Part shown: one piece after another, positions 11,338 through 59,342 of the stretch
Layout: every line of letters begins with the position of its first letter
Numbering within the stretch: position 1 is the first letter of the stretch
Assembly (NCBI GenBank): GCA_964641355.1
Contig: CAZXND010000001.1
Coordinates: 87,858-151,857, forward strand
Origin: an uncultured Gammaproteobacteria bacterium
GTDB lineage: Bacteria > Patescibacteriota > Microgenomatia > Levybacterales > GWA1-39-11
DNA: 64,000 nucleotides
Direction of reading: 5' to 3'
The notes under the pieces: model-generated
What the model was told of the DNA's origin: nothing
What the model saw: the letters and a program-made list of their open reading frames with translations, nothing else
Database searches by the model: none
Position numbers and translations under genes: made by a program

Positions 11338-11350
11338 TTTACTACTCTTA

Positions 11351-11381
11351 AAACAACAAAAAAGCGGCTCGCAAGCCGCCT
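11351..11381 (-). terminator. Rho-independent terminator or attenuator hairpin between the NUDIX gene and rplC
   Basis: The minus strand reads GCGGCTTGCGAGCCGC (6-bp GC-rich stem, 4-nt loop) followed by TTTTTTGTTGTTTT. Confidence 0.6.
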
Positions 11382-11513
11382 GAGTAAGAACTGACTGTTC
11401 TATTCGAGCTCGCTAACTAGTCAAAAACACCTCCCTCTTTTTTGTCATAAGAGTATCGATAATTATATACAAGCGTGAAGCTAAATGCAAGAGTAAAGTA
11501 AGAATTTCAAGGG

Positions 11514-12357: not shown

Positions 12358-13539
12358 TTAAGCAGTTATTTTAGTTATAACTCCTGCTCCAACCGTTCGT
12401 CCACCTTCTCGGATGGCGAATCTCATTCCTTCTTCAACAGCTATGGGTACGATAAGTTTTACATTCATCTTGGTATTATCACCTGGCATTACCATTTCAA
12501 CACCTGCTTGCAGTGCAATCTCACCAGTTACATCAGTTGTACGAATATAGAATTGTGGTCTATAACCCGTGAAGAAAGGTGTGTGTCTTCCTCCTTCTTC
12601 TTTAGTCAAAACATAAACTTCTGCTTCAAATTCCTTATGAGGCGTAATACTTCCAGGCTTAGCAACAACTTGACCTCTCTCAACGTCTTCTTTTTCGATT
12701 CCACGAAGCAAAAGTCCTACATTGTCTCCTGCTTGCGCATCATCCAATTGCTTTCTAAACATTTCTACTCCAGTTACAACTGTGCTCTTTGTATCCTTAA
12801 TACCTACAATTTCAACAGTATCGTTTACTTTAACCTGACCTCTTTCAACTCTACCAGTTACAACAGTTCCTCTACCTTTAATAGAGAAAACATCTTCTAC
12901 GGGCATGAGGTATGGTTTATCAATATCTCTTTCTGGAGTTGGAATATATTCATCAACCTGATCCATAAGAGCCAAAATTTGTTTCTCTGCATCAGCATCA
13001 CCTTCAATTGCTTTAAGAGCTGATCCTCGAATTATTGGAGTAGTATCACCAGGATACTGATATTTATTTAGAAGTTCTCTTACTTCCATTTCAACAAGAT
13101 CGAGAAGTTCTGCATCTTGTACCATATCTGTTTTATTCATGAAAACTACAATTGCTGGGACTCCGACCTGCTTTGCAAGAAGAATATGTTCTCTTGTTTG
13201 AGGCATTGGACCATCTGGAGCTGAAACAACAAGGATTGCACCATCCATTTGAGCTGCACCTGTAATCATGTTCTTAATATAATCCGCATGACCTGGGGCA
13301 TCTATATGAGCATAATGTCTTTTTGGAGTTTCGTATTCAATATGAGTAATGTTAATAGTAACTCCACGAGCTTTTTCCTCAGGAGCATTATCAATATCCT
13401 CATATTTTCTTGCTTGAGCCATTCCTTGTTTGGAAAGGACTGTAGTGATAGCGGAAGTTAAGGTTGTCTTACCATGATCGACATGACCAATCGTTCCTAT
13501 ATTTAAATGTGGTTTGCTTCTAACAAATTTATCTGCCAT
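12358..13539 (-). CDS. tuf: Elongation factor Tu
   Basis: 393 aa with [15 protein letters not shown] and NKTD motifs. Confidence 0.95.
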
Positions 13540-17036: not shown

Positions 17037-17996
17037 TTAACCCTCAACAATTTCTACTTCTATCTCTGGCACAAATCCAAAAACATCACCTATTCTTCTT
17101 TTTATTTCATAGATTATAGAAGTGACATCATTAAAACTAGCTTCACCTAAATTAACAATAAAGTTAGGATGCTTATTACTAACCTGAGCATTTCCTACTT
17201 TGTATCCTTCAAGACCAAGTCTTTTTATCATATATCCAATACTCACTTTACCATACCAATTATTTTCAACTTTTTCCTTTACGTCAGGCCAAACTGAAAG
17301 CACTTTTTCAATATTTTCTTTTTCGTTTATATTTTTAAATACGGATCCAGTATTTGGATAATCTAAAGGATGATGTTCTCGTCTATAATTTATATTTGAA
17401 TAATAAGCTTCTTTTGCTTTCTCAACTCCTTTGGGGTTGGTTTTTGTAAGATTTAACGATACTGAAAGAATTATTAAATTCTTATTCTCTTTTATATAAC
17501 TATTTCTGTAAGAAAAATTTAGAGCATCGCTTCTTATTTTTTTAACTTCAAGTGTATTTATATCAATAACCTCAATCTCAAAGACCGAATCCTTAACTTC
17601 TCCTCCGAAAGCCCCAACATTTCCACGTACTGCTGCACCAACTGTTCCAGGCAATCCTCCTGCCCATTCTAACCCGATCAAATTATTGTCAAATGAAAAA
17701 TTTATTAAATCATCAAGAACTTCTCCTGCAAAAGCAGTGACAATGTTACCCTCAACTTTAAAAGAATACCCATTAGAAGAAGCTAGTTGAATTACTGCGC
17801 CTGGATAATCCTCGTCTGTAAAAATTAAATTAGTTCCAATTCCTACTACAAAAATTTTATTTATGTCCTGTTGTTTTAAGAATTTTAAAGCGTCTAAAAC
17901 TTCTTTCGCATCTTTAACCTTAATATAATAACTAACCTTACCACCGATTTCATACCAAAGAACTTGTGAGATAATATAATCCTTATTTATCAACAT
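17037..17996 (-). CDS. murB: UDP-N-acetylenolpyruvoylglucosamine reductase
   Basis: 319 aa; FAD-binding domain with GIGTNLIF and GGLPGTVGAAV motifs. Confidence 0.8.
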   Translation of the reverse strand: MLINKDYIISQVLWYEIGGKVSYYIKVKDAKEVLDALKFLKQQDINKIFVVGIGTNLIFTDEDYPGAVIQLASSNGYSFKVEGNIVTAFAGEVLDDLINFSFDNNLIGLEWAGGLPGTVGAAVRGNVGAFGGEVKDSVFEIEVIDINTLEVKKIRSDALNFSYRNSYIKENKNLIILSVSLNLTKTNPKGVEKAKEAYYSNINYRREHHPLDYPNTGSVFKNINEKENIEKVLSVWPDVKEKVENNWYGKVSIGYMIKRLGLEGYKVGNAQVSNKHPNFIVNLGEASFNDVTSIIYEIKRRIGDVFGFVPEIEVEIVEG

Positions 17997-18191: not shown

Positions 18192-18449
18192 TTAATAGGG
18201 TTTTGCAGGAAGAGGAATCCTAAACACTCTACCAATTATCAATTTTCTTTCCTGGTAAATCCTTTCGCACCTTACACCGTTCAATTTATCTTGAGCTTCT
18301 CTTAGAGCGTCTAAAGAAATTCCTGAAAGTTTTCCATTTTGAATATCTGATATTGAACTTCGAAGCATGCCTTCTGCATTATCTGCTCTTTTTAAATGTT
18401 CTGCTAAAACCTCTTCTCTAGATTGTGTTATAACTTCAACTAATTTCAT
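18192..18449 (-). CDS. Hypothetical 85-aa protein downstream of aclA
   Basis: ORF with a 24-nt gap to the aclA stop; no recognisable motif. Confidence 0.35.
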   Translation of the reverse strand: MKLVEVITQSREEVLAEHLKRADNAEGMLRSSISDIQNGKLSGISLDALREAQDKLNGVRCERIYQERKLIIGRVFRIPLPAKPY

Positions 18450-18473
18450 GAGCTTAATATAAAAATTTTCTTA

Positions 18474-20255
18474 TTACTTGTCAATAGTTGCATCAAAAAC
18501 CTGATCCTCATCAAGTCTAAAAATTCCTTCATCTAATCTTTTTTGATCTAAATAATGTGCTATAAAACCTACAGATCTAGACAATACAAATAGAGCATTA
18601 AAAAATTCAGCATCAATGAGTTTTTGTAATTCTTCAATGGTAAGGTTTTCTTTTTCACTCAAAATATCCAACAATACCGCTGCAATAACTCCATCAACAT
18701 TTAGGATTAGATTTCCCTTTTTCTCTGTGGTTACTTTTTCTACAGCAAGAGCAAAATCAGAAAATTTATTTTCTTTAAGATTTTCTTTGAATTTTAGGAT
18801 TTCAATAACTCTTGGATCAGGAGCATCAACTCTGTATTTTTTATGTCCAATTCCTGAAATATATTCTCTTTTAGAAGCGAACTCTTCAACAAAATCTGAT
18901 GGGTTTTTTTCATCAATTACTCCCTTAAACCAATTTTCTGCTGCTTGATTTATCGCTCCTCCAAACCGTGAACCAATCGTTAAAAGGCCAGAAGAAAGAG
19001 AGGATACAAGATCCTTTCCTGCTCTAGCAGTAATAATCGTATTTACCGCACCTGATACATAAGGACCGTGATCTACAGAAAGTTTTAATACTAAGTCAGT
19101 GAAATCTTCAAGTTCTTTTGATTTAGATTTTCTTCCCAAGAAGAGAGAAATAACTATATAAGAAAAAGAGTGTTCACCTGTAAACTTCACTAAATCTTCC
19201 CCAAGTATTTTTACATTTCCATCAACATCTTGAGATATACTTGTGGCAATTAGAGCATGACGTCTATCTTCCATCTCTCTTATTCTACTATAGTCCGACT
19301 CGGTTTTCACTTTTTCTTTTTCAATATTATTTATTAATTCTATAAATTCAGAAAAATTTTCTGCCACCATAACTCCTGCTTCGGAAAGAATTTTCTTTTT
19401 ACTTCTCGCTGATTCATCGACATCTTTTGCTATCGCCTTTGCATGACCAAATTGTGGGGGATTAGGAAAAACTTCTGCGACACTTCCTGCAATATAAGCG
19501 ATAACATTTTTGGTAATTTTTTTCTCGTAAATCAATTTTGCAATCTCGTATTCATCTACACCACCCAGTTCACCAAAATAGATAATGTGCTTTGTATTTC
19601 CATCTTTTTGAGCGGATAAAAATGCTTCAGTTGGAGTCAAAATGGGAAACCTTTCTCCTCCAAAAGAAAGTGCGAAAGAGAGCCTAAGACCAGAATTTGT
19701 TACCATTCTTATAATTTCATTTGTCATCCCTCCGGAAGAACTCATAACAGCTACATTTCCAGAGTCAAAAAGCGCTGAATCGATAAGTTGTCTTGGGTCA
19801 ACTCCTCCAATCGCACCAAGCTTTAAAATTTTAGGAATAATAAATCCAACACTAGCTGGACCTATTAAAAATTTATTATTATTTACAACTTTCGTATAAA
19901 GGTATAAAGAATGTTTTTCTGGCACCTCTTCAGCAAAAACTACCCCACCTAAGATGTTTTCAAAATCTAATAATTCATTCGAGTAATTAAGCGTTCTTCG
20001 TCCTGATGACAAATTGAGAAATAGGTTTGTATTTTCTGGAATTTCTTCAAACTCTGGAAAAACAGGGATCATAATTTCTTGCTTTCCAAAAAAATATCTT
20101 TCGTATTTTCTTCCAGAAGCAAATATTCCTACAATGCTAGGTTCTTTTTTACCAGCAAGAAAATCAAAATCAAGTATTGATTGGATTATAGAGGGATAAG
20201 ACCCAATTGTAACTATTTTAGCCTCGTATTTTCTTAATTTTTCAATATCTAACAT
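18474..20255 (-). CDS. aclA: ATP-citrate lyase large subunit (CoA-binding/SucD-like domain fused to a citryl-CoA lyase/citrate synthase-like domain)
   Basis: 593 aa; phosphohistidine motif QFGHAKAI. The C-terminal domain reads GIGHKKYRVDAPDPR...ALAVEKVTTEKKGNLILNVDG...FVLSRSVGFIAHYLDQKRL, almost identical to the corresponding ACLY segments. Confidence 0.85.
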   Translation of the reverse strand: MLDIEKLRKYEAKIVTIGSYPSIIQSILDFDFLAGKKEPSIVGIFASGRKYERYFFGKQEIMIPVFPEFEEIPENTNLFLNLSSGRRTLNYSNELLDFENILGGVVFAEEVPEKHSLYLYTKVVNNNKFLIGPASVGFIIPKILKLGAIGGVDPRQLIDSALFDSGNVAVMSSSGGMTNEIIRMVTNSGLRLSFALSFGGERFPILTPTEAFLSAQKDGNTKHIIYFGELGGVDEYEIAKLIYEKKITKNVIAYIAGSVAEVFPNPPQFGHAKAIAKDVDESARSKKKILSEAGVMVAENFSEFIELINNIEKEKVKTESDYSRIREMEDRRHALIATSISQDVDGNVKILGEDLVKFTGEHSFSYIVISLFLGRKSKSKELEDFTDLVLKLSVDHGPYVSGAVNTIITARAGKDLVSSLSSGLLTIGSRFGGAINQAAENWFKGVIDEKNPSDFVEEFASKREYISGIGHKKYRVDAPDPRVIEILKFKENLKENKFSDFALAVEKVTTEKKGNLILNVDGVIAAVLLDILSEKENLTIEELQKLIDAEFFNALFVLSRSVGFIAHYLDQKRLDEGIFRLDEDQVFDATIDK

Positions 20256-20260
20256 ATTTT

Positions 20261-21439
20261 TTAAGACACATAATTAATAGATGGTCTAACAATATCCGTT
20301 AACGGAATTTCTGCACCAAAAACCTCACCTAGGAGGTTTTCTTTATCTAGAAAATCTCTAATAAGAGCTAAACCTTCTTTATCGTGTGGACCACCTCGTC
20401 TAACAAAAATCTTAACTCTCTGAGCCCTTAATTCACTTGAAACTTCCGAAAGCGCATTAATAATACCCTTAAATGTGACTCTTACATCAGTGAAATTTGC
20501 AACACCACCACCGATTATCAGAGCCTTTTTCGGAGCACGAGATTTTAAAAGAAGTAAAAGAAGATTTTTCGCATAAATGTAAGTTTCTTCTTTATTGGGA
20601 TTTCCACTATATTCTCCGTAATTTGCGATAAGACTGGCTTCACCTTCAAGAAATACCTCATCAGCAAGAACCACACTTCCACCACCACCGGACAATAAAA
20701 GAAAAATCGCACCATCAGGGTTTAATACTTCAAGACTAAAAGACGAAGCACTTTCTTCTGAAAGTTTTTGAATATTAAGCTCTTCTTCTGTTTTTTTTCT
20801 ACTATTAAACTCGACAAAATCTCTTTCATTCCACTTATCTTCAACAAAAAAAATAGCTGAAGCATCTACTTCAACGGCACAATCTAAAATAAAAATTTTT
20901 TCATCAATAACTCTAAGGGGGTTAATTTCCAAAAATGAAAAATAATATTCTTCAAATGAATCAACTATCTTTTCAAGTATTCCCTCTTCTATTCCTAAAA
21001 ATATTTTTACTTCAACAAGATCTGATTCTTTTCTTACAAGAGTTCTCCTAATATTATCTTCTTCTTCAATATCTACTCCTCCTTTATCGGAATAAAGAAG
21101 CATAAGACCATCTCTAACTCTTTGAATTGATAAATAATAATCCTTGGCTTTATCAGAAGAAATAAACTCTTCAATTATAAATTTTTCATATCCTTGCTTA
21201 TTAAACTCTTCAAGTTTTTCTTTAATCTGATCCGGAGAGAGGTTTAACCCCACAAGACCCTGTTTAAATCTTTTTTTTACTCCTTGATCAACTTTTACTA
21301 CATATTTTTTAGAATTATCTAGTATTAAATCTGGAATAGAGTTTTCATTAAAATCAAACTTTACTGAAGTATTAAGCAATTTAAGCTCTGTGTAAATTAT
21401 TTCTTTTGCACGGAATTCTGAAAGTTTCTTTCTAGCCAC
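20261..21439 (-). CDS. aclB: ATP-citrate lyase small subunit (ATP-grasp/SucC-like)
   Basis: 392 aa; FLEINPL, ANYGEYSGNP and IIGGGVANFTDVRVTFKGII...IFVRRGGP match hallmark ACLY/AclB motifs. Confidence 0.85.
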   Translation of the reverse strand: MARKKLSEFRAKEIIYTELKLLNTSVKFDFNENSIPDLILDNSKKYVVKVDQGVKKRFKQGLVGLNLSPDQIKEKLEEFNKQGYEKFIIEEFISSDKAKDYYLSIQRVRDGLMLLYSDKGGVDIEEEDNIRRTLVRKESDLVEVKIFLGIEEGILEKIVDSFEEYYFSFLEINPLRVIDEKIFILDCAVEVDASAIFFVEDKWNERDFVEFNSRKKTEEELNIQKLSEESASSFSLEVLNPDGAIFLLLSGGGGSVVLADEVFLEGEASLIANYGEYSGNPNKEETYIYAKNLLLLLLKSRAPKKALIIGGGVANFTDVRVTFKGIINALSEVSSELRAQRVKIFVRRGGPHDKEGLALIRDFLDKENLLGEVFGAEIPLTDIVRPSINYVS

Positions 21440-21489: not shown

Positions 21490-23601
21490 TTATTGTTCTG
21501 AAATTCGACCTGTAAAAGTAGACTTTGCAAGCATTTGATCAACAATATTTTTTGGAACCGGCTCATAGTGAGAAGGTTCCATATAGTACGTTGCTCTTCC
21601 TTGCGACATGCTTCTAAGAGTTGTTGCATAGCCAGATAATTCTGCAAGAGGAACTTGAGATAAAATAATTCTTGCATTTCCACGTTCCTCAGTTCCAACT
21701 ATTTGCGCTCTTTTTGAAGAAAGATCACCAATTACGTCTCCCATGAATTCTTCCGGAGTGGTAACTTCAACTTTCATAATTGGCTCGAGAAGAACAAGAC
21801 CTGCCTTTCTCGTTGCTGTTTGAAAAGCCATACTTCCGGCAATTTTAAAGGCAACATCTGAAGAATCTACATCATGGAAAGATCCATCGTATAAAGTAAC
21901 TTTAATATCAGTCATTTGATATCCAAGAAGTACTCCTTTTTCTAAAGCCTCTTTAACTCCTTTTTCAACAGAACCTATAAATTCTGCGGGAATCGCACCT
22001 CCTTTTATCGCGTTAACGAAAGAAAAACCCTCCCCTCTTCCTAAAGGCTCAACTCTAAGAAGTGCATGACCATACTGTCCACGTCCTCCAGTTTGTTTGA
22101 TATATTTACCTTCTCCTTCGGCGTTCTTTTCTATCGTCTCTTTATAGGCGACTTGTGGCGCTCCAACATTCGCCTGAACATTAAATTCTCGATTCATACG
22201 ATCGACCATTATTTCTAATTGTAATTCTCCCATTCCAGAAATAATTGTTTGAGCTGTTTCATGGTTTGTTTTTACTCTAAAAGTCGGATCCTCTTCCATA
22301 AGTCTTTTAAGTGCATACCCAAGTTTTTCCTGATCTGATTTTGTTTTTGGCTCAATAGCCAAAGAAATAACTGGTTCTGGAAATGTAATCTTTTCAAGAA
22401 CAATCGGCTTTACTTCATCACACAAAGTATCACCTGTAACCGTATCCTTCAACCCAACAACTGCAACAATCTCTCCTGCATATGCTTCTTTAATTTCCTC
22501 TCTTTGATTAGAATGCATAAGAAGAATTCTTCCAACCCTTTCTCTAATATTCTTAGTGCTGTTATAAATATAAGATCCTGCAACAATTTTTCCAGAGTAT
22601 ACCCTAACAAATGTAAGCTTCCCTACGTGTGTATCAATTTGAACTTTAAATGCAAGTCCGCAGAAAGCTTCTTCTGGAACTAGGTTTCTTACCTCTTCTA
22701 CTGCTGTCTTAGGGTTAACTCCTTTTATCTCTTTAAGATCGAGAGGCGAAGGTAGGTAATCTATAACGGCATCAAGAAGTGGTTGAACTCCTTTATTTCT
22801 AAGAGACGATCCAGCATATGTTGGAACTAATTTGTATGCAATCGTAGCTGCTCGAAGTGATTTCTTTAACTCTTCTACTGAGATCTCTTCGTTATTTAGA
22901 TATTTCTCAAGAAGAGAATCATCATTCTCAGCTATTTTTTCTATCATTTTATGTCTTGCTTCTTCTATTTCTGCTTCCATTCCAGAAGGAACCTCATCGG
23001 TCACATCAAATTTCGCACCTAATTCTTCACCTGTCCAAACAATCGATTTCCTATTTAAAAGATCGTAGACACCTTTAAACTCCTGCTCGCGACCAATAGG
23101 AACAACCATTGCAACAGGATTGGCTCCCAGTCTATCAACAACGCTTTTAAGAGTTTTATTAAAGTCTGCACCAAGCTTATCCATTTTATTAATAAAACAA
23201 ATTCGAGGAACTTTGTATTTATCTGCTTGTCTCCAAACTGTTTCTGACTGAGATTGAACCCCTTCTTCAGCATCAAGGACAGTAACTGCACCATCAAGTA
23301 CTCTTAGAGATCTCTCGACTTCTGCGGTAAAATCTACGTGACCAGGAGTGTCAATAAGATTAATTCTGTAGTCTTTCCAAAAAGTAGTAGTAGCAGCTGA
23401 TACAATAGTTATTCCACGCTCTCTCTCCTGATCCATCCAGTCCATAACTGTATTTCCCTCATCAATATCACCGATTTTATAAGTTTTTCCTGTGTAATAA
23501 AGGATTCTCTCAGAAGTCGTAGTTTTACCCGCATCAATATGCGCAATTATTCCGATATTTCTTATTTTGTCTAATGGTAACATTCGATCATTATCAGCCA
23601 T
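21490..23601 (-). CDS. fusA: Elongation factor G
   Basis: 703 aa, starting [20 protein letters not shown]. Confidence 0.95.
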
Positions 23602-23665: not shown

Positions 23666-25198
23666 CTACTCCCACTCCATTGTTGCAGGAGGTTTTGTTG
23701 AAATATCATAAACAACACGAGAAACTCCAGGTACCTCATTTACTATTCTTGAAGAAATTCTTTGCAATACTTCATAAGGAATCCTCGCCCATTTCGATGT
23801 CATAATATCTTGAGACTCAACAACTCTAAGAGCTATAACTTCTCCAAAAAATTTCTCATCTCCTTTAACTGCTGTTGAAAAAGCACCACTTAAAACAGGG
23901 AAGGAAAGAAAAATATGAGACAAAATTTTTGCCTCATGAAGCTCTTCGATTACTATTTTATCCGCCAATTTCTCCTTTTCAAGCCTGTCTTCCGTGACAT
24001 CCCCCCTTATTCTTATTGCGTATCCCGGCCCTGGAAATGGTTGACGATTAATAAACTCTTCTGGTAAACCCAAAATTCTCCCTATTTTTTTAACCTCATC
24101 TTTATAAAACTCTCTAAGAGGTTCAATAAGTTTTAATTTCATATTTTCAGGTAAACCTCCTACATTATGGTGACTTTTTATTTTTGATGAGTGCTTACTC
24201 CCTTGACTCTCTATAACATCTGAATAGATTGTACCTTGAAGTAAAAATTTTACATCCTTACCCTGACTGACCAACCTCTCCATCTCGCGCTCAAAGATTT
24301 CAATATAGAAATTCCCAATTATTCTTCTTTTCTCTTCCGGATCATTTACTCCCTTTAATTTCTTAAGCATTTCTTCTTTCACTTCACAAATAATTGGTTC
24401 TATTCCAAGCTTGGAAAATATTTTTTCCAAATGTTCTTTTGTATCAAAGCGCATCAAGCCGTTATCAACATAGATTGGAATAAATTTCTCTCCGATTGCA
24501 GAAGCCGTAAGAAATCCCGCCACCGTAGAATCAACACCGCCAGAAATCGCACCAATAACAAACGAGTTGCCAGCCCTATTTTTTATGTCGTTTATCAGGC
24601 CTTTAACATTTACCTCGTGAGTCATTAAATCAAGATCACAGATATCAATAAAATTTTTTAAAATTATATTACCGAAGTCTGTATGTTCAACTTCCGGATG
24701 AAATTGCACACCAAAAATTTTTCTACTTGAATCCTCAACGAACGCATAAGAAACGTGATCTGTAGATCCAAGGGTTTCAAATCCAAAAGGAATACTCATA
24801 ATTTCATCTCCATGACTCATCCATACAATAAATTTATTTTCCAAACCTCTCAAAATTCTGGACTGCGAGTTCTTAACCTTAAGCTGTAACTCTGCAGGAC
24901 CAAACTCTTTCTTTCCAGAAATAACCTTTCCTCCTAGCAAATAAGATGTAAGTTGCATTCCATAGCATATTCCAAGTATTGGGATTCCTTTTGTAAAAAT
25001 TGAAATGTCTACTTTAGGAGCGTCAGCTGAGTAAACAGAGGATGGTCCTCCTGATAAAATTATCCCAGAATAATCCTGATTTTCTAAACTAAAAAGTGCC
25101 TCTTCAGGGTTTACTATTTTTGACTTTACACCCAACTCACGAAGTCTTCTTGAAATAAGATGGGTGGTTTGCGATCCAAAATCTACAATTAAAATCAT
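23666..25198 (-). CDS. guaA: GMP synthase (glutamine-hydrolysing)
   Basis: 510 aa; class I GATase domain (GICYGMQ) plus an ATP-PPase domain with SGGVDS. Confidence 0.9.
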   Translation of the reverse strand: MILIVDFGSQTTHLISRRLRELGVKSKIVNPEEALFSLENQDYSGIILSGGPSSVYSADAPKVDISIFTKGIPILGICYGMQLTSYLLGGKVISGKKEFGPAELQLKVKNSQSRILRGLENKFIVWMSHGDEIMSIPFGFETLGSTDHVSYAFVEDSSRKIFGVQFHPEVEHTDFGNIILKNFIDICDLDLMTHEVNVKGLINDIKNRAGNSFVIGAISGGVDSTVAGFLTASAIGEKFIPIYVDNGLMRFDTKEHLEKIFSKLGIEPIICEVKEEMLKKLKGVNDPEEKRRIIGNFYIEIFEREMERLVSQGKDVKFLLQGTIYSDVIESQGSKHSSKIKSHHNVGGLPENMKLKLIEPLREFYKDEVKKIGRILGLPEEFINRQPFPGPGYAIRIRGDVTEDRLEKEKLADKIVIEELHEAKILSHIFLSFPVLSGAFSTAVKGDEKFFGEVIALRVVESQDIMTSKWARIPYEVLQRISSRIVNEVPGVSRVVYDISTKPPATMEWE

Positions 25199-25201
25199 TT
25201 T

Positions 25202-26344
25202 TTAGTAATTTTTGCCGGGATTTGTAATTAGCAAACCGTGTGGATGGCTTTCTGTAAGACTTGCTTGTGTAATCTGAATGAATTTTGCCTTATTCCAAAG
25301 ATCACCAATACTCTTTGCGCCTATATAATACATTCCAGATTTTATTCCTCCCATACTTTGCTCAACTAACTGTTCAAGAGATCCTTTTATGGGAACTAGC
25401 CCTTCTACGCCTTCTGCAACTAAAATCTTATCTTTATAATAATCCTTTCCATGATATTCGTCTTCAACTTTTATTTTTGCACCGCGTTCCATAGCACCAA
25501 TCGAACCCATTCCTCGATATTCTTTAAAAAGATACTCTGCTATATTTGCTTTTACAATACTTTGGAAACGTGATGGAACTTGATCCTTTGTAAGTTTTAC
25601 AACTTTTCCAGGTGATTCTTCACTTGATGCAAAAAAGTTTCCCATCATGACTGTCGATGCACCAGCAGCAAGCGCTTTAATCATATCTCCAGAATATTTT
25701 ATTCCTCCATCAGCAATAACTGGCACGTTATTTTTTTTAGCAATATTACAAACATCGAGAAGAGCGGTAATTTGTGGAACTCCCATCCCTGAGATTACTC
25801 TTGTTGTACAGATTGCTCCTGGACCCATACCGACTCTGAGAGCATCAGCGCCAGCTTTAATTAGTGCCTCAGCGGCTTCTCCGGTTGCAATATTTCCAGC
25901 AATAACGTCTATATCTCTATATTTATTCTTGATATATCCGATTATTTCCAAAATGTTTTTCGTAAATCCATGAGCGCTATCAACAACTAAAACATCCACA
26001 CCAGCAAGGGCTAAAGCCTCAACTCTTTCTTCAAATCCCTTGTTTGTTCCAACAGCTCCTCCAACTAAAAGATTTTCCTGTTTAACTTTTAAGACTTCGT
26101 CAGCTTGATCCTTTATAGAAAAATTGCGATGGATTATTCCGATTCCTCCAAGACGAGATAAGGCAATGGCAAGACGCGATTCAGTTACTGTATCCATGGG
26201 AGCAGAAACTAAAGGAATTTCAATTTTGATTCTTCTCGTGAGATTAGTGGAAAGGTCTATATCACTTCTTGAGAAATCGGTGTATCCAGGAAGAAGTAAG
26301 ACATCGTCGAATGTAAGACCGTATGAGAAGTTTTGGGGATCCAT
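25202..26344 (-). CDS. guaB: IMP dehydrogenase lacking the CBS subdomain (GMP reductase not excluded)
   Basis: 380 aa TIM barrel with catalytic loop GPGAICTTR. There is no CBS pair between VKQ and LLVGGAVG. Adjacent to guaA. Confidence 0.75.
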   Translation of the reverse strand: MDPQNFSYGLTFDDVLLLPGYTDFSRSDIDLSTNLTRRIKIEIPLVSAPMDTVTESRLAIALSRLGGIGIIHRNFSIKDQADEVLKVKQENLLVGGAVGTNKGFEERVEALALAGVDVLVVDSAHGFTKNILEIIGYIKNKYRDIDVIAGNIATGEAAEALIKAGADALRVGMGPGAICTTRVISGMGVPQITALLDVCNIAKKNNVPVIADGGIKYSGDMIKALAAGASTVMMGNFFASSEESPGKVVKLTKDQVPSRFQSIVKANIAEYLFKEYRGMGSIGAMERGAKIKVEDEYHGKDYYKDKILVAEGVEGLVPIKGSLEQLVEQSMGGIKSGMYYIGAKSIGDLWNKAKFIQITQASLTESHPHGLLITNPGKNY

Positions 26345-26407
26345 GATTCATATTATATCAAAAGTATTTTGAAGTCAATATTCGCTTTATATGCTAGAAT
26401 ATGCAGT

Positions 26408-27493
26408 ATGTTTGAATCACGAACCAACAAAATACAAAAAATAATTATTGAAAATGACATCAAAGCATTATTAATATCATCTTCCAAAAACATATTTTAT
26501 TTAACAGGCGTATTACTATCTGAAGTCGAAAGAGAAGGGTATTTATTAATAACTCAAAAACATTTATATCTTTTTACAGATAAACGATATACTGGAGGAA
26601 TTAAGGCTAAATTCTTAAATGTAATAGAGATTTCTAGAGAAAAAAAGTTTGTTGAATGTTTAAAAAATATCTTAAAGAGCGAGAAGATAAAAAGCCTTTA
26701 TTTTGAGATGTATAATCTAAAATACTTAGAATTTGAAGTACTAAACAACTCATTAAAAACGACTATTAAACTTACTCCACTTTCTGATTTCATTGAAAAT
26801 CTGCGAATTATAAAAGACAAAAATGAGATAAAAAATCTAAAAAAAGCTTGTCTTCTAACTGATGAGTCCTTCTCCCACATTTTAGGCTTAATTAAAACCG
26901 GAATTAGCGAAAAGGAATTAGCTGAAGAACTAGAAATATTTATCATAAAGAACGGTGGAAAAATTTCTTTTCCAACAATAGTTGCTTTTGGTAAAAACTC
27001 AGCAGTTCCACATCATACAACAGGTAATACCAAGCTCAAAAAAAACTCCATAGTTCTTTTAGACTTTGGTGTTGATATAAACGGATATAAGTCTGATATG
27101 ACAAGAACCGTTTTTTTTGGTAAAGCCAATAAGAAATTTAAAGAAGCTTATAAAACAGTTCTGCTCTCTCAGAAAAAAGCCATAGAATCATTAACCAAAA
27201 CAAAAACAGCAAATTTTCCAGCTGAGATAGTTGATAAAGAGTTTGAAAATTCAGGATTTGAATCTTTAATCCACGGATTGGGACATGGGATAGGTCTTGA
27301 TATTCATGAATTTCCGTCAATTTCAAAGCTTAATAAAACAAAAATTGAGCCAGGAATGACATTTACAATTGAGCCAGGAATTTATATCACAAACCTTGGA
27401 GGAGTAAGAATCGAAGATGATATCCTAATGAAAAAAACTGGATTAGAAATTTTAACTAAATCTAAAAGAGAATTGATTGAAGTTAGAATCTGA
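26408..27493 (+). CDS. Xaa-Pro aminopeptidase/dipeptidase (M24B)
   Basis: Start placed at MFESRT. M24B signature HGLGHGIGLDIHEFP, with the creatinase-like N-terminal domain. It is the only sizeable plus-strand gene in the rpo/str region, and its 3' end overlaps rpsG convergently. Confidence 0.75.
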   Translation: MFESRTNKIQKIIIENDIKALLISSSKNIFYLTGVLLSEVEREGYLLITQKHLYLFTDKRYTGGIKAKFLNVIEISREKKFVECLKNILKSEKIKSLYFEMYNLKYLEFEVLNNSLKTTIKLTPLSDFIENLRIIKDKNEIKNLKKACLLTDESFSHILGLIKTGISEKELAEELEIFIIKNGGKISFPTIVAFGKNSAVPHHTTGNTKLKKNSIVLLDFGVDINGYKSDMTRTVFFGKANKKFKEAYKTVLLSQKKAIESLTKTKTANFPAEIVDKEFENSGFESLIHGLGHGIGLDIHEFPSISKLNKTKIEPGMTFTIEPGIYITNLGGVRIEDDILMKKTGLEILTKSKRELIEVRI

Positions 27494-36637: not shown

Positions 36638-37909
36638 CTATACTATAGAATAAATCGGAAAAAGATTTTCTGAATCCCTTGCTTCCTTTAGATTAAACCT
36701 ACTTTGACTATAAAAAGACGCTAAAATGCTTCCCTTTTGGACCTTTTCCCCAACTCTTGTTCTCAAAAAAATTCCAGCTCTTTTATCGGTTGGCGCTCCT
36801 AAAATTCTCGCAATTATTGTTATATTCTTACTATCAATACTTTTAATCATTCCTGACTGGGAAGATTTTATTTCAATCTCAAACTTTCCGGGTTTTAATT
36901 TTTGAGAGGTTATATCAGGATCTCCATCTTGCGCTTCAATGATTTCTCTGAACTTTGATAATGCTTGCCCACTCTTCAATATTTCCTCTATCCACATTCT
37001 AAGACTTCCGTATTTACTCTCTATTTCTTTCTTTTTTATATCTCGATCGCTTAAACATAATCTTATTACGGCCTCTGCAAGATCCAGCGCTCTTTCTTCT
37101 AAAATTAATGGTCTAGTTGGAGTTTGCTCTAAAACTTCTAGTGCATCCTTTGCTTCTAGTAGAGGTCCGACTCCTGCTCCTGAAGGTTCATCTATTCTAT
37201 TAACAAGAACTTTTATTTCTATATCAAATTTTTTTGCTAAAAATTCGAATTTACTTTTTAAAACTTGTGTGTCGTCAATTTTTTGAACCTTCATTGCTTT
37301 TCCATAGGGAACTTCAATTACTACATGATTCGATCCGAATGCAATTTTTTTTGCCAATACAGATACTATTATTTTATCGAAGCTTTCAAAAAGAAGCGGC
37401 TCTTCCACTCTGATAATTTCATCATCGGCTGGAGCGATATTAAAACTTCCTCCCCAAACAATACACGCATTAGTTTTCTCTACAATTCTATATACATCTT
37501 TTTTTAAAAAATCAACTTTAGAAAAAACCTCCATCGAATCTGCTGTCCCTGCTGGTGTTGTAATGGCTCTTGATGAACTCTTAGGAATTTTGAAACCAGC
37601 AGCTGCAACAATAGGAACAACAACGAGGGTAGTTCTTCCACCAGGTGACCCACCAATGGAATGTTTATCTGCCACTATTCCCCTGAAATTTAGTTTTTCT
37701 CCTGTTTCAACCATTGCCTTGGTCAAAAAAAATAATTCCTCATTTGAAAAACCTTTTGAAAAACCTGAAGCAACAAAATATGTAGTTAAAACATCTCCCA
37801 ATCTATCTTCTGCAATTTGATCCATGATTGCATATATCTCTTTATAAGAAAGCTTCTTACCTAAAAGTTTTTTTCTAATTGCCTCAAGGGCTAAATTTTT
37901 TTGGTCCAA
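36638..37909 (-). CDS. Pyrimidine-nucleoside/thymidine phosphorylase family (AMP phosphorylase-like)
   Basis: 423 aa; glycosyltransferase family 3 motif ADKHSIGGSPGGRTT and a C-terminal PYNP domain. Confidence 0.7.
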   Translation of the reverse strand: MDQKNLALEAIRKKLLGKKLSYKEIYAIMDQIAEDRLGDVLTTYFVASGFSKGFSNEELFFLTKAMVETGEKLNFRGIVADKHSIGGSPGGRTTLVVVPIVAAAGFKIPKSSSRAITTPAGTADSMEVFSKVDFLKKDVYRIVEKTNACIVWGGSFNIAPADDEIIRVEEPLLFESFDKIIVSVLAKKIAFGSNHVVIEVPYGKAMKVQKIDDTQVLKSKFEFLAKKFDIEIKVLVNRIDEPSGAGVGPLLEAKDALEVLEQTPTRPLILEERALDLAEAVIRLCLSDRDIKKKEIESKYGSLRMWIEEILKSGQALSKFREIIEAQDGDPDITSQKLKPGKFEIEIKSSQSGMIKSIDSKNITIIARILGAPTDKRAGIFLRTRVGEKVQKGSILASFYSQSRFNLKEARDSENLFPIYSIV

Positions 37910-37917
37910 AGTTTTTT

Positions 37918-38124
37918 CTAATCCTCTAACTTAATTTGTCTCATAGCATATCTACTGAAATTTTTAATCAGCCGTGTTAACTCAAAAAATAACATATTAA
38001 TAAAGCGAACAATAAATGGTTCTGCAAGAAAAAAAAGATATTTAATTCTCTCCCAGATTTTGTTAATTAATAAAATTAATGAATTTGAGTTTTCTGTTTC
38101 GAATTCTAGTGTTTCTTCTGTCAT
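37918..38124 (-). CDS. Small hypothetical protein (68 aa, partly hydrophobic)
   Basis: ORF overlapping the sortase stop by 4 nt; no known motif. Confidence 0.3.
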   Translation of the reverse strand: MTEETLEFETENSNSLILLINKIWERIKYLFFLAEPFIVRFINMLFFELTRLIKNFSRYAMRQIKLED

Positions 38125-38852
38125 GAGTTGTCCATATCATCTAATCTTGCTTTTATAATTAATCTTTTCCAGGTTGTTCCTGGCGGCGTGCATGTAACAA
38201 TTGTTAAATAGCTCTCATCAAGTGATTGCGATAAAATATTTGTATCCTCTGGGTCCGTAATCGTTATTGAAAACACTTTGTACTGAAATTCTACTCCATT
38301 TACTTTAATTAAAACCTTATCTCCAACCTTTAAAGTATGAAGAGTTGCAAAAATAGCTTTATAATTTTTGGGGTCAAACAACTGAGGAAGAGTAGAGTGT
38401 CCGAAAATTACAGCATTTCCTTTTTCCGGAGGCGTAGAAGTTCCAAGATACTGTACAAGGTGTTTTGAAAGATCATAATCACGCGTTGATACTTCCGCAT
38501 CTAAGATCTTCAATCTTGGAATTGAAAATAAATATGAATCAACTTTTTTCTGATCGTATTGGTTTTTAATTTCAGGATACCAGTTTCTTGCATCAACATA
38601 ATCTGATCTAAACGAATCTAATCCCTGAGAGATCAAAGTGCCTATCCCCGTCTTTTTAACAAGATACTTTGGAACTGGAAGTTCTATTTCATTTTGAGCC
38701 AAAATCGGTGAGAGGAAAATCTGATAGGAAATCATAGGAAATAGAAAGTATGAAGTTAAAATGAATCCAAATAAAATTAATAAAGTGCCAAAAACTTTGA
38801 TGGAAACTTTTTTATATTTTTTCTTTCCCTTGACATAGTAATACTTACTCAT
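38121..38852 (-). CDS. Sortase family transpeptidase
   Basis: 243 aa; N-terminal TM, catalytic His in VIFGHST, and the TLxTC motif LTIVTCTPPGT. Confidence 0.75.
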   Translation of the reverse strand: MSKYYYVKGKKKYKKVSIKVFGTLLILFGFILTSYFLFPMISYQIFLSPILAQNEIELPVPKYLVKKTGIGTLISQGLDSFRSDYVDARNWYPEIKNQYDQKKVDSYLFSIPRLKILDAEVSTRDYDLSKHLVQYLGTSTPPEKGNAVIFGHSTLPQLFDPKNYKAIFATLHTLKVGDKVLIKVNGVEFQYKVFSITITDPEDTNILSQSLDESYLTIVTCTPPGTTWKRLIIKARLDDMDNS

Positions 38853-41067
38853 TTGATCGAATTAATAAATTGATATTCTTAGAATTAGTGGGAAGTTTGT
38901 TTGGAAATAACGGCAATTTATTTTTTAGTACAATCATGAAAGAAGAAACTCCCTTGGTATTATCCAAAATTTCTTTTGCATCGTTTATATTCTTACCTTT
39001 TAATTTTTCCGCTATTTCATCTGATTTTATTTTTGGAACAAAAACTGCATCCGCAACAAGCTTTGCTTTAATTTCACCATTCTTCTGGGTTTCAAAATTA
39101 GATAATTTAATTTTTGAATCTTCAGAAACATAATTATAATTTGAAGGAATTCCACCAGAATCATCTCTAATCACCTTCTCCAAATCAGAAACACTATACT
39201 TACCTACTTTAAAATTAATTTTGACTGCTAAATGCAAATCAGAAGACTGATCTCCTTTTTTCTTACTAAAGTTTTTAGCCACATACTCATAGTCAAAACT
39301 CTCAGGCAATAATTCTTCATCAGTAGCTTTTTGAGATGAAGCCTTTTCAATTGCTTGTTTTTCAAGACTACCAAATACTTTTGCTTCAAGAGTATCAAGA
39401 TCCTTTTGAGATACAGTCTTTATTTCTTTTTTTGTTCCACCAGAAAAAGCAGAATCATTTTTTGCGAGCACATCAGATTGTGAAAAGTCTCCGACACTAA
39501 AGTTTGTTCCAGAAGGAAGATTATATTCCGTACCAAATTTTGAAGCTTCAATTTTTACCTTTGCACTTGGAGGGGTTATAGCACTAGCACTAAAAGATGC
39601 AACAGAAACATTATCTACTAAAATAAACTTTAGGTTATTAGAAGATGTAATTACACTTCCTTTGTCAAAAGTTCTTTTTTGATCGGATTTATTGTAAACA
39701 GTAATTTCGCCCGTTGATTTATCTCCCGTTTCAGTTATTCCAGTAACATCGGCATCCCCTTCTCCACTTATTTCCTCATCAAAAATTGACACCTTAATAG
39801 AATTTCCTGAGGTAACTTCATTGGATGAAAAAACTAAATCAGATTTTTCATTTACAGACTTTCTGTCAGTAAACACAGAAATGTCCGCTTTAAGAATTAA
39901 TCCATAATACACAAAAGAGAATAAGAATAAGAGAATTAAAAAAACTACAGGGACCACCAATAACCCTGCTTTTTTCTGAGTACTAAAAACAGACGGTAAA
40001 TATATTTTTGGAAAAGAAATTTTTTCTGTTATATTTGAAATTCTCGAAAAAACACTTTTAGCTACTGGCACAGATGAAACATCATTAATTCTAATGTCTT
40101 CTACTTTATTTTCTCCCTTATCAAACTCCGGAATTATTAAATTACTTTCTTCATTTATAGACACTGGGGAAGCTTCATCTTCCACAGTATCCTCTTCTAC
40201 TTCGCCCTTAGCAAATTGAATATCTTGATCCTTTACAAATCCGAATTCTTGAGATTCAGATGTCATCAGTTTTTCAGCATTCTCCTCAACGTCCTTTCCT
40301 GCCTTTATCTCCATCTCAACACGATATCCCATTTGATTTCCAACGCCAGATATTATTGCCTCTTTCTCAAATCCCTTTTCAAGAACAACTGTCTGAGGGA
40401 TGTGTAAAAAAGGCAACTCTTTACTCCATTGATACGAAAGAAAACTCTGCTGAATTTCTTCTGCCTGCTCATAATCGAGGAGAACTATTTTAGAAGGTAA
40501 TACTTCAACATTTTCTATCTTTTTAAGCAGTTTTTCAACTGACCTCGGTAAGTCATCTTCCACATCACCACTTCTCGCCTCAATAACATTATCGTTTTTA
40601 ACGATATAAACATAAATTTTTCTTCCTCCTATTTCAACAAAAATCGAAGAAACTGGTGCACCTTCGGATTTCTTTACAAAAGATGTTATTGCCTCAACTG
40701 AAATTATAAAACCTATGGGAGTAAGGTCTAGTGCTTCACAAATACTTTTAAGTTTTGCGAGATATTCTTTTTTTATTTTTCCAGCATCAACCCAATCGTA
40801 AGGAACAGCAAAAATTGTTTTATTTAGCGGCACCCCTTCAGGAAGGCTTGTTTCTACGAAACTGATAACCTTATCTGATGCTGAGAGAATATCTTCTTCT
40901 TCAAAAGTGGAATTATTTAGAAGCTCGTCCTTTGTGGAAATAACGTGAAGGGACTGTCCTAGTTTTTCAAAAAGTATCGCTCCAACATTTCTAGAATTAA
41001 TAATTAAAGAAAGAAAATATTCTCTTTCCTCTTTCTTTTTATTTAAAAGCTTAGGCAGATTTATCAT
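38845..41067 (-). CDS. Bitopic membrane protein: cytoplasmic actin-like (PilM/FtsA/GspL-like) domain, one TM, then a large S/T/K-rich extracytoplasmic domain
   Basis: 740 aa. The first ~230 residues follow a PilM/FtsA-like strand pattern (VGAILFEK..., FAVPYDWVD, ICEALDLTPIGFIISVEAI, SSIFVEIGGRKIYVYIV); a single TM (LLVVPVVFLILLFLFSFVYYGLIL) lies near residue 370; about 350 aa follow outside the cell. The fold assignment comes from pattern only. Confidence 0.35.
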   Translation of the reverse strand: MINLPKLLNKKKEEREYFLSLIINSRNVGAILFEKLGQSLHVISTKDELLNNSTFEEEDILSASDKVISFVETSLPEGVPLNKTIFAVPYDWVDAGKIKKEYLAKLKSICEALDLTPIGFIISVEAITSFVKKSEGAPVSSIFVEIGGRKIYVYIVKNDNVIEARSGDVEDDLPRSVEKLLKKIENVEVLPSKIVLLDYEQAEEIQQSFLSYQWSKELPFLHIPQTVVLEKGFEKEAIISGVGNQMGYRVEMEIKAGKDVEENAEKLMTSESQEFGFVKDQDIQFAKGEVEEDTVEDEASPVSINEESNLIIPEFDKGENKVEDIRINDVSSVPVAKSVFSRISNITEKISFPKIYLPSVFSTQKKAGLLVVPVVFLILLFLFSFVYYGLILKADISVFTDRKSVNEKSDLVFSSNEVTSGNSIKVSIFDEEISGEGDADVTGITETGDKSTGEITVYNKSDQKRTFDKGSVITSSNNLKFILVDNVSVASFSASAITPPSAKVKIEASKFGTEYNLPSGTNFSVGDFSQSDVLAKNDSAFSGGTKKEIKTVSQKDLDTLEAKVFGSLEKQAIEKASSQKATDEELLPESFDYEYVAKNFSKKKGDQSSDLHLAVKINFKVGKYSVSDLEKVIRDDSGGIPSNYNYVSEDSKIKLSNFETQKNGEIKAKLVADAVFVPKIKSDEIAEKLKGKNINDAKEILDNTKGVSSFMIVLKNKLPLFPNKLPTNSKNINLLIRSNE

Positions 41068-58519: not shown

Positions 58520-58534
58520 TGATATAATAAAATT

Positions 58535-58759
58535 ATGAAGTATTGGTTTCAGTCAAAATGGTATGGTTGGTATCCATCTTCCTGGCAGGGTTGGATCGTC
58601 ACTCTAGCCTATTGCATAGTTACAGTATATCTACTTTTAAACTCTAACGATCCAAAGTCTACAATAAATACCATTCTTTCATTTGTACCTAAATTCTTAG
58701 TGTTAAATATCGTTTTTATGACTATTTACTTCTTCACTGGACCTCGACCTAAAAAATGA
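58535..58759 (+). CDS. Small hypothetical membrane protein (74 aa, Trp-rich N-terminus)
   Basis: ORF with two predicted TM helices, directly after the DUF2207 gene. Confidence 0.35.
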   Translation: MKYWFQSKWYGWYPSSWQGWIVTLAYCIVTVYLLLNSNDPKSTINTILSFVPKFLVLNIVFMTIYFFTGPRPKK

Positions 58760-58818
58760 TATATTTCGTACCACTTGTGCATCCTGATTAAACAGGTTAA
58801 AATTTTTAAATTATTTTT

Positions 58819-58995
58819 ATGAAACCCGAGAAAAACGGTCATTACAGCGAACAAAAAGGACACCAATTAAGAGGAGCTTGGAATAGGGCTGCAAAACAAG
58901 CCCCAGGAATTGCTCGAGGACAACTAATAATTGATCAAGTTAGATTTCTTGAATCTCGTCGAAGGATGCGCAGAGTAAGTAGAGACGGAAAATAA
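58819..58995 (+). CDS. Possible small basic protein (58 aa)
   Basis: Manual translation gives MKPEKNGHYSEQKGHQLRGAWNRAAKQAPGIARGQLIIDQVRFLESRRRMRRVSRDGK. It is below the ORF-track length cutoff and there is no homology call. Confidence 0.2.
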   Translation: MKPEKNGHYSEQKGHQLRGAWNRAAKQAPGIARGQLIIDQVRFLESRRRMRRVSRDGK

Positions 58996-59003
58996 CATAT
59001 CAC

Positions 59004-59342
59004 CTAACCTCTTGATAAACCGTGAAGAAATGAACCAACTAGAGATACCACTAAGCTAAATAAAAGAGCCCACCAAAAATTCTCAACAAAAAAACCAGGT
59101 ACGATAATTGAAGTTAACATAACAAGTAATGCATTGATCACAAAAATAAAAAAACCTAAAGTTAAGATATTTATTGGAAGAGTTAGAATAATTAGAATTG
59201 GCTTAATAAAAGTATTTATGGCACCAAGAACTATTGCAATAATTACAATTGTTATCCAATTTTCCACCTTAATGCCAGGAAGAATCTTCGCAGCAACAAA
59301 TACAGCAATACTCGAAAGTAGAAGATTAAGAAGAATATGCAT
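59004..59342 (-). CDS. DUF360 / phage-holin-4-like 4-TM membrane protein
   Basis: 112 aa, entirely hydrophobic with a pattern like Phage_holin_4_2 (ILPG..V..F..A). Confidence 0.45.
   Translation of the reverse strand: MHILLNLLLSSIAVFVAAKILPGIKVENWITIVIIAIVLGAINTFIKPILIILTLPINILTLGFFIFVINALLVMLTSIIVPGFFVENFWWALLFSLVVSLVGSFLHGLSRG

Follow-up and report, generated by a model that had tools for sequence, protein, structure and literature searches.

In this work, we describe the gene pair aclB-aclA in a 64,000-nucleotide stretch of DNA (hereafter the window) from contig CAZXND010000001.1 of assembly GCA_964641355.1 (positions 87,858 to 151,857, forward strand). Our results indicate that the pair encodes a real, intact heteromeric ATP-citrate lyase (ACL; EC 2.3.3.8), as predicted from its domains and residues, and that it belongs to a Levybacterium of the candidate phyla radiation (CPR; Patescibacteria). 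From the gene neighbourhoods of related loci, we propose that the enzyme serves anabolic cleavage of citrate into acetyl-coenzyme A (acetyl-CoA) plus oxaloacetate in a fermentative cell without a tricarboxylic acid (TCA) cycle, a role to which we assign a probability of about 60%.

CPR bacteria are usually described as fermenters lacking a TCA cycle that still build peptidoglycan, and peptidoglycan needs acetyl-CoA for N-acetylglucosamine (GlcNAc), plus diaminopimelate (DAP) or lysine derived from aspartate. A lineage-specific ACL lying beside murB, ddl, glmS, genes of the DAP pathway and glycan acetyltransferases would offer a testable answer to the question of where these precursors come from, and would indicate citrate as an exchanged metabolite.

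Identity and catalytic residues of the aclB-aclA pair

Both open reading frames (ORFs) are intact and lie on the minus strand, at exactly the coordinates given in a preliminary description of the window made without database searches. The gene aclB (20261..21439, minus strand, GTG start) encodes the small (beta) subunit of 392 aa, composed of an ATP-grasp and a citrate-binding domain; aclA (18474..20255, minus strand, ATG start) encodes the large (alpha) subunit of 593 aa, in which a CoA-binding and CoA-ligase module, similar to the alpha subunit of succinyl-CoA synthetase and bearing the phosphohistidine loop, is fused to a citryl-CoA-lyase (citrate-synthase-like) domain at residues ~335-585. 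The two genes are co-oriented and separated by 5 nt. Pfam searches returned ACL domains in both subunits: AclB matched the ACL-specific family PF24948 with 98.8 bits (cut-off 83) and the citrate-binding family PF16114 with 184.2 bits (cut-off 26.8), and AclA matched Ligase_CoA above its cut-off and, at the C-terminus, Citrate_synt (PF00285) with 77 bits.

Similarity to solved structures was assessed with phmmer, comparing both subunits to all PDB chains, and the best matches were bona fide ACLs. AclB scored 223 bits to human ACLY (E=7e-65), with lower values for ACLY-A of Methanosaeta (Methanothrix) concilii (188) and AclB of Chlorobium limicola (145), as against 65 to the citryl-CoA synthetase (CCS) of Hydrogenobacter and 28 to SucC. 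Residues 12-585 of AclA aligned to residues 497-1090 of human ACLY with 345 bits (E=7e-102) and ~37-38% identity over the full length, followed by M. concilii (308 bits), C. limicola (212), the small subunit of CCS (80), SucD (77) and citryl-CoA lyase (CCL; 63). The assignment to a two-subunit AclB/AclA enzyme made in the preliminary description is thus borne out by the comparison with AclA/AclB, CCS/CCL and SucCD, and the citrate-synthase-like C-terminal domain, whose alignment had been named as one of the points on which the assignment could fail, aligns end to end, catalytic residues included. The further label of Chlorobium-type holds for the subunit sizes, whereas in sequence the enzyme is closer to the eukaryotic and Methanothrix ACLs than to that of Chlorobium.

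Annotation resources might suggest another identity, namely a citryl-CoA synthetase or succinyl-CoA synthetase wrongly taken for an ACL. The top NCBIfam (release 20) matches were indeed the models for SucC, SucD and citryl-CoA lyase, and source records name such proteins 'hypothetical', 'citrate/2-methylcitrate synthase' or 'succinyl-CoA synthetase alpha', in some cases 'succinyl-CoA synthetase alpha subunit'. However, the NCBIfam scores lie far under the curated cut-offs (SucC 53.8 against 375.6, SucD 112.6 against 336, citryl-CoA lyase 85 against 212), the alpha-like module shares one polypeptide with the lyase domain, a fusion not present in CCS/CCL or SucCD, the ACL-specific Pfam domains exceed their cut-offs, and in the PDB comparison ACLs outscore citryl-CoA and succinyl-CoA synthetases 3- to 5-fold. 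The domain set and the PDB and NCBIfam scores together rule out the CCS/CCL and SucCD identities, to which we attach a negligible probability. Since the ACL-specific domains are present, the scores to ACLs far exceed those to CCS/CCL and SucCD, the characteristic residues are kept and aclB adjoins aclA, we assign the pair to ACL. No NCBIfam model was passed by either subunit, which probably explains the wrong or 'hypothetical' names in the source records; taken with such names, it also suggests that ACL is probably under-counted in metabolic surveys based on annotation. The motif PQFGHAKA, which covers the phosphohistidine loop, may serve as a simple marker to recover mislabelled ACLs in such surveys.

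In human ACLY, H760 is the phosphohistidine, and the lyase domain holds the catalytic residues H900, H975 and D1026 and an Arg triad. The motifs quoted in the preliminary description, GGGVANFTDV, FVRRGGP, QFGHAKA and LILNVDG, were all found (minus strand, as are all motifs given here), and the agreement goes well past what chance would give. AclB carries GGGVANFTDV at residues 310-319 (20483..20512) and FVRRGGP at residues 345-351 (20387..20407), which together with EYSGNP match by alignment the human residues G309, N346/T348 and R379, reportedly identified as citrate-binding by Sun et al. in 2010; its ATP-grasp motifs VVKVDQ..KKR, LEINPL and ILD are also kept. AclA carries the phosphohistidine loop QFGHAKA at residues 268-274 (19434..19454), with H271 aligned to human H760, and FAEEVPE (19917..19937), whose Glu aligns with E599 of the human motif IAEGIPE. 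The lyase domain contains VDHGP (19062..19076), where H396 corresponds to human H900, a catalytic His of this domain; GIGHKKYRVDAPDPRV (18807..18854), where H471 and R482 correspond to human H975 and R986; and LILNVDG at residues 516-522 (18690..18710), where D521 corresponds to the catalytic Asp D1026. R560 and R580 align with human R1065 and R1085. Every catalytic or citrate-binding residue that was checked is kept in the window and, two Woesebacteria members described below apart, in the 24 to 65 relatives compared.

From the conservation of these residues, we infer that the mechanism of the ACL family carries over to the window enzyme. ATP would be bound in the ATP-grasp fold of AclB and citrate in the citrate-binding domain of the same subunit; AclA would be phosphorylated at His271, which would hand the phosphoryl group to citrate; the citryl-phosphate would be attacked by CoA, giving citryl-CoA; and the citrate-synthase-like domain of AclA (H396, H471, D521, R482, R560 and R580) would split citryl-CoA into acetyl-CoA and oxaloacetate by retro-Claisen cleavage.

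A single departure was found among the motifs: the loop reads GHAKA, with K273 in place of the usual Gly of GHAGA. This Lys is invariant in the 24 relatives aligned, and within the set examined GHAKA is confined to a CPR clade described below, which holds one GHAGA member (P0122), while all ACLs examined from outside that clade have GHAGA-type loops. Furthermore, the position of human R976 is Lys or Arg in the CPR clade (motif GIGH[KR]KY). Such clade-specific features could be signs of changed chemistry, that is, of an ACL-derived enzyme acting on, for example, another hydroxy-acid or acyl-CoA, and two Woesebacteria members with Asn at the H900 equivalent might be cited in its favor. Nevertheless, the citrate ligands of AclB (equivalents of G309, N346, T348 and R379) and the residues of the citrate-synthase-like domain (equivalents of H900, H975, D1026, R986, R1065 and R1085) are all kept, and the identity to human ACLY extends over the whole of AclA. 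Because the citrate and citryl-CoA ligands are fully conserved, an altered specificity appears unlikely.

The two Woesebacteria members are L062 and L071 (AclA ORFs at ~10001-11773 of each locus), in which VDNGP is found where all others have DHGP; their AclA may be impaired or mechanistically different at the lyase step. A separate AclA-like protein of 1003 aa (P0129) carries a long extension at its C-terminus, its lyase residues are degenerate (DRNP for DHGP, GIGC for GIGH), and it may represent a non-catalytic or repurposed paralogue.

Host, distribution and inheritance

Ribosomal protein S3 of the host has its best named matches in Candidatus Levybacteria (72-75% identity), by which we identify the host as a Levybacterium. 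The ribosomal genes of the window also agree with the preliminary description, which had remarked on a reduced genome lacking L30: the genes for L18, S5 and L15 are contiguous and leave no space for L30, as in a reduced CPR genome. The exact AclA sequence was found again in the contigs of three sequencing runs that are independent of one another, flanked by the same genes each time. A word-indexed protein search returned 1,934 matches, the best 120 of which are 60-78% identical to the window protein and, where named, come from Levybacteria. An alignment-based scan of one genome per species, in which a match to either PQFGHAKA or Y[FY]GELGGxDE was accepted, revealed relatives in at least 312 GTDB species. 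The best 80 of these 312 share 54-66% identity with the window protein and belong to Levyibacteriota, Woesebacteria, Saccharibacteria/Saccharimonadia, Magasanikbacteria and 'Patescibacteria group'. An ACL had been deemed unexpected in such a lineage; this holds less than supposed, given this distribution and the prior reports in Gracilibacteria and Saccharimonadia that are discussed below. Among the loci L010-L089, dozens of third-party-annotation metagenome-assembled genomes go by the title 'uncultured Gammaproteobacteria bacterium' and have loci of the Levybacteria type in CPR gene order; these titles look like placeholders or mislabels.

An exhaustive search of representatives at 50% identity yielded 134 clusters at E<1e-30, and a neighbour-joining tree with Kimura distances was built from 59 sequences (582 columns, 100 bootstraps). 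The window, all CPR loci and the representatives P0122-P0127, which include a Dojkabacterium, form one clade with 100/100 bootstrap support. Outside it lie a second type from Saccharibacteria, a DPANN archaeon, the Chlorobiaceae and a Methanothrix-like group together with the eukaryotic fused ACLs, and the nearest of these outside representatives have mixed gene contexts, both bacterial-looking and archaeal. The phylogeny, which had been proposed as a way to find a donor lineage, is distance-based and delivered the CPR-only clade, but neither an order among the non-CPR groups nor an ancient donor; with archaeal and DPANN sequences as tree neighbours, an ancient inter-domain transfer is possible. 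The second Saccharibacteria type (P0144/P0297, Candidatus Saccharibacteria, 588 aa) is a divergent ACL, ~35% identical to the window AclA, with a GHAGA loop and a position outside the GHAKA-containing clade, so that CPR lineages hold at least two ACL lineages.

The preliminary description had also raised lateral acquisition of the pair as a module. Position favors such a view, in that aclBA breaks the normally conserved rpsL-rpsG-fusA-tuf operon and resembles an insertion, and archaeal and DPANN sequences are among its nearest relatives outside the CPR; on this view, the pair would be a foreign module gained recently, or a chimera of assembly or binning, placed in the str operon region and of little physiological relevance. 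Against this, the comparison of composition that had been called for shows aclBA to be like its flanks: GC content is ~34% throughout the window, and both aclA and aclB fall inside the spread of the 55 window genes for GC, GC3 and codon-usage distance, with no foreign signal. Gene order is identical in the three sequencing runs, and the order fusA-aclBA-murB-...-tuf is common to Levybacteria whose AclA is only 59-64% identical to that of the window; both ORFs are intact with all catalytic residues, and the CPR clade is monophyletic. Composition, conserved order and the CPR-only clade effectively refute a recent transfer or chimera, which we regard as highly improbable. Since composition matches the flanks, gene order recurs at ~60% identity, the CPR clade has full bootstrap support and S3 places the host in Levybacteria, aclBA is best read as an old, vertically inherited CPR trait rather than a recent import.

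Gene neighbourhoods and a proposed role in citrate cleavage

Gene neighbourhoods were compared in 80 related loci, each taken with 10 kb on either side; ORFs were called and clustered, and recurrent clusters were identified with Pfam and NCBIfam. Neighbours were identified by curated models above their cut-offs, except tdh and kbl, which occur in 7-8 loci and score from a few to ~30 bits under the strict equivalog cut-offs. The gene aclB lies directly upstream of aclA, co-oriented, in 78 of the 80 loci.

Two arrangements were recognized in Levybacteria. The first, to which the window belongs, reads rpsL-rpsG-...-fusA-(x)-aclB-aclA-murB-...-HhH-GPD/LytR_C-...-tuf, so that aclBA stands between fusA and the cell-wall and tuf genes, inside a broken rpsL-rpsG-fusA-tuf region, as had been described beforehand. 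The upstream neighbour fusA (21490..23601, minus strand) encodes elongation factor G (EF-G; 703 aa, Pfam EF-G domains), and its stop codon lies 50 nt from the start of aclB; a promoter and terminator scan of the window found no minus-strand terminator-like site between the two genes, and fusA and aclBA are probably co-transcribed. The scan was otherwise uninformative (24 promoter-like sites in the window against 22.7 expected). The downstream partner murB (17037..17996, minus strand), for UDP-N-acetylenolpyruvoylglucosamine reductase, was read on an identical contig and carries FAD_binding_4 and MurB_C domains in Pfam; tuf lies at 12358..13539. The second arrangement reads greA-[tdh-kbl]-aclB-aclA-murB-lysS. 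Across the related loci, 25 of 65 have a co-oriented fusA upstream at no more than 4 kb, and 29 of 73 have a co-oriented murB, which follows aclA in both Levybacteria arrangements, downstream at no more than 800 bp; 38 loci overall have murB near aclBA.

Other neighbours recur in different contexts. The ligase gene ddl stands directly upstream in four loci (fusA-ddl-aclBA), glmS lies within 5 kb of aclBA in seven, and the series aclBA(-murB)-dapL-lysA-aspartate kinase-dapB-dapA was found in three, dapL itself occurring in eight loci of Levy-, Woese- and Saccharibacteria-type. An archaeal-type phosphoenolpyruvate (PEP) carboxylase precedes the pair in four loci (PEP carboxylase-dcd-x-aclBA) and an AMP-forming acetate-CoA ligase (acs) adjoins it in three, while GNAT acetyltransferases and membrane O-acyltransferases of the Acyl_transf_3 family occur in five and three loci, respectively. 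Of the 80 loci, 59 contain one or more of murB, ddl, glmS, the genes for DAP/lysine synthesis, tdh, kbl, acs and PEP carboxylase. The density of these pathway genes falls from 17.2 per 100 kb at 0-2.5 kb from aclBA to 0.85 at 7.5-10 kb, and from 7.7 to 0.85 when murB is left out, figures that are descriptive and do not constitute a test, because the list of neighbours was compiled after their recurrence was known and the 80 loci share ancestry.

Two side observations were made in these neighbourhoods. At L091:8292-11755, the locus of the sister-clade representative P0132, aclBA lies inside a large glycan-biosynthesis cluster with genes for glycosyltransferases, methyltransferases and a flippase, and is immediately preceded by a DegT aminotransferase fusion and an acetyltransferase of the hexapeptide-repeat type, a context that hints, as an independent pointer, at an ACL feeding sugar acetylation. 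Besides, a eukaryotic/poxvirus-type topoisomerase IB (cluster c45) is encoded a few kb downstream of aclBA-murB in ~8 Levybacteria-type loci (L041, L043, L044, L046, L052, L063 and others).

On the basis of these neighbourhoods, we favor an anabolic role in which citrate would be taken up from a host or the environment and the ACL run in the cleavage direction, as in the eukaryotic cytosol. Acetyl-CoA would be used for N- and O-acetylation of envelope sugars, for example in the formation of UDP-GlcNAc by GlmU, followed by MurA and MurB, and oxaloacetate would be converted to aspartate and from there to DAP, lysine and the peptidoglycan stem peptide. Related Microgenomates have been described as fermenting sugars to lactate and as devoid of a TCA cycle and of any path to acetyl-CoA or oxaloacetate (PMC6064768), and the same citrate-cleavage role has been proposed for a Gracilibacterium (PMC6851277). 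In addition, an AMP-forming acetate-CoA ligase beside the ACL argues that ATP is spent for acetyl-CoA, and not that acetyl-CoA is burned for ATP.

The same neighbours can be arranged in the opposite sense, with the ACL working mainly in reverse and forming citrate, CoA and ATP from acetyl-CoA, oxaloacetate, ADP and Pi; acetyl-CoA would then come from threonine (through Tdh-Kbl) or acetate, and oxaloacetate from PEP carboxylase. The reaction is near equilibrium, and ATP-yielding use of the reverse direction is documented, the passages of PMC9768450 and PMC8085960 that cite Moller et al. 1987 describing ACL in the citrate-forming, ATP-yielding direction in Desulfobacter postgatei. Moreover, tdh-kbl, acs and the PEP carboxylase gene stand directly upstream of aclBA in several loci and look like consecutive pathway steps. 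Nonetheless, AMP-forming acetate-CoA ligase costs two ATP equivalents per acetyl-CoA and PEP carboxylase forfeits the PEP phosphate that pyruvate kinase would turn into ATP, which together make the net gain of the reverse direction zero or negative. None of the 80 loci showed aconitase or isocitrate dehydrogenase, which leaves the citrate with no visible fate; the recurrent neighbours consume acetyl-CoA, as do GNAT, Acyl_transf_3 and the GlcNAc pathway, and oxaloacetate or aspartate, as does the DAP pathway; and one locus carries a CitMHS-type carrier. We consider a mainly reversed ACL rather unlikely, although clearly less so than an altered specificity. A third use, in a reverse TCA cycle, would call for 2-oxoglutarate:ferredoxin oxidoreductase, fumarate reductase, pyruvate:ferredoxin oxidoreductase (PFOR) and the rest of that cycle, none of which was found among the Pfam-scanned window genes or the annotated recurrent clusters of the 80 loci.

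Several points weigh against anabolic citrate cleavage and limit our confidence in it, beginning with the post hoc neighbour list and common ancestry already mentioned. The direction of flux through a near-equilibrium reaction is not readable from sequence, and the Gly-to-Lys change beside the phosphohistidine may have consequences of its own. PEP carboxylase and tdh-kbl make the very products of the cleavage direction, and so fit the reverse direction equally well. No citrate transporter was found in the 64-kb window, and a citrate carrier adjoins the ACL in only 1 of the 80 loci (L051, a MatC/CitMHS citrate-dicarboxylate carrier ~1.5 kb from aclA), the other multi-transmembrane neighbours being MraY-like, UbiA, PMT_2, Acyl_transf_3 or major facilitator superfamily (MFS) proteins. 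Finally, the absence from the host of PFOR, pyruvate dehydrogenase, Pta-Ack, citrate synthase and similar enzymes is assumed.

Other features of the window, significance and comparison with known systems

Between aclA and murB lies a doubtful 85-aa ORF (18192..18449, minus strand), probably outside the system. It was dropped as a candidate third component, having no family match above threshold and no homologue in the 80 loci; the 102-aa ORF in the equivalent place of L008 is unrelated. A near-consensus sigma-70-like site (TTGACA-17-TATATT, 11/12; 18456..18484, minus strand) overlaps the aclA stop and precedes this non-conserved ORF, and could be a murB promoter or a chance match in AT-rich DNA. 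The str region is also broken between rpsG and fusA, by guaB (25202..26344), guaA (23666..25198) and a divergently oriented Xaa-Pro M24 peptidase gene (26333..27493, plus strand); the peptidase and guaA/guaB were found again at the same place in some related loci.

The remaining window encodes mostly housekeeping functions (secY, adk, map, rpoBC, alaS, ftsK, RNase J, pnp, infB, nusA and dnaJK), along with a D-2-hydroxyacid dehydrogenase and an AMP-phosphorylase-like gene. The latter (36638..37909, minus strand, 423 aa) matches the archaeal-type thymidine phosphorylase model PRK04350 with 439 bits (cut-off 434) and the AMP phosphorylase model AMP_phos with 419 (cut-off 535), an enzyme family of CPR and archaeal nucleotide salvage. 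A sortase gene (38121..38852, minus strand) overlaps the end of a gene for a 740-aa protein (region 38121..41067), which may be a sortase-anchored surface protein; its sole match is a weak one to Baseplate_J-like (E=5e-5). A 112-aa protein of the Phage_holin_4_2 family (59004..59342, minus strand, 108 bits) and a DUF2207 membrane protein (56810..58519, plus strand) are encoded nearby each other, and no further phage genes were seen near 56810..59342. Rfam and tRNA scans of the window returned nothing. The dnaK gene at the window end had been suspected of truncation, which was rejected, as the gene is merely cut by the window edge.

ACL has already been reported in CPR bacteria, and the window thus adds a new member to a large, under-annotated clade of a known kind of enzyme. 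Among the papers searched, we found none linking ACL with Levybacteria, and none that describes the GHAKA clade or reports cell-wall and DAP genes beside its ACL. A broader proposal, which we put forward tentatively and regard as doubtful at present, is that citrate is a principal carbon currency taken from hosts or neighbours by Levybacteria as well as Woesebacteria, Saccharimonadia, Magasanikbacteria and Dojkabacteria, with the GHAKA-type ACL as the main, perhaps only, source of acetyl-CoA and oxaloacetate, genetically wired to peptidoglycan and glycan acetylation as well as DAP/lysine synthesis. If this were true, the presence of ACL would define a distinct metabolic platform within the CPR, and citrate supplementation would be a lever for cultivation.

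Among known systems, the heteromeric AclB/AclA of Chlorobium limicola, reportedly described by Kanao et al. in 2001 (PDB 6HXJ), resembles the window enzyme in its two genes aclB-aclA, domain order and catalytic residues, with subunits of ~398 and ~610 aa. However, identity is only ~34%, the loop is GHAGA in Chlorobium and GHAKA in the window, and ACL serves the autotrophic reverse TCA cycle in Chlorobium, whereas nothing in the window or the 80 loci points to such a cycle. The closest solved relatives are M. concilii ACLY-A/B (6HXI/6ZNW) and human ACLY (6HXH, 6POE and others), both alignable with the window subunits over nearly their whole length. Cytosolic ACLY offers a parallel to the role proposed above, in that it provides acetyl-CoA to a compartment without a source of its own. 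On the other hand, eukaryotic ACLY is fused into one polypeptide that includes a regulatory linker, in contrast to the two subunits of the window, and the M. concilii and human enzymes have GHAGA loops, the window protein standing in a separate, CPR-only clade.

The CCS/CCL of Hydrogenobacter thermophilus (6HXQ, 6HXP) consist of homologous modules and perform the same overall chemistry as the window ACL; nevertheless, their CCL is a separate protein, whereas the lyase of the window is fused in AclA, and their scores to it are low, as given above. Desulfobacter postgatei has an ACL of the same family and provides the precedent for the reverse direction, but does so with a complete TCA cycle oxidising acetate, a context not seen at the window or related loci. 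Further precedents come from CPR bacteria without a TCA cycle. A two-subunit ACL of a Gracilibacterium was proposed to convert external citrate to acetyl-CoA and oxaloacetate, has a GHAGA loop, is most similar to archaeal proteins and was called 'rarely detected in CPR' (PMC6851277; Sieber et al., 2019, mBio), and aclAB was found enriched in metagenome-assembled genomes of Saccharimonadia in a 2025 study (PMC12577380). The Levybacteria-type clade differs from the Gracilibacteria ACL in its GHAKA loop, its presence in at least 312 species genomes and its ties to murB, DAP-pathway genes and glmS.

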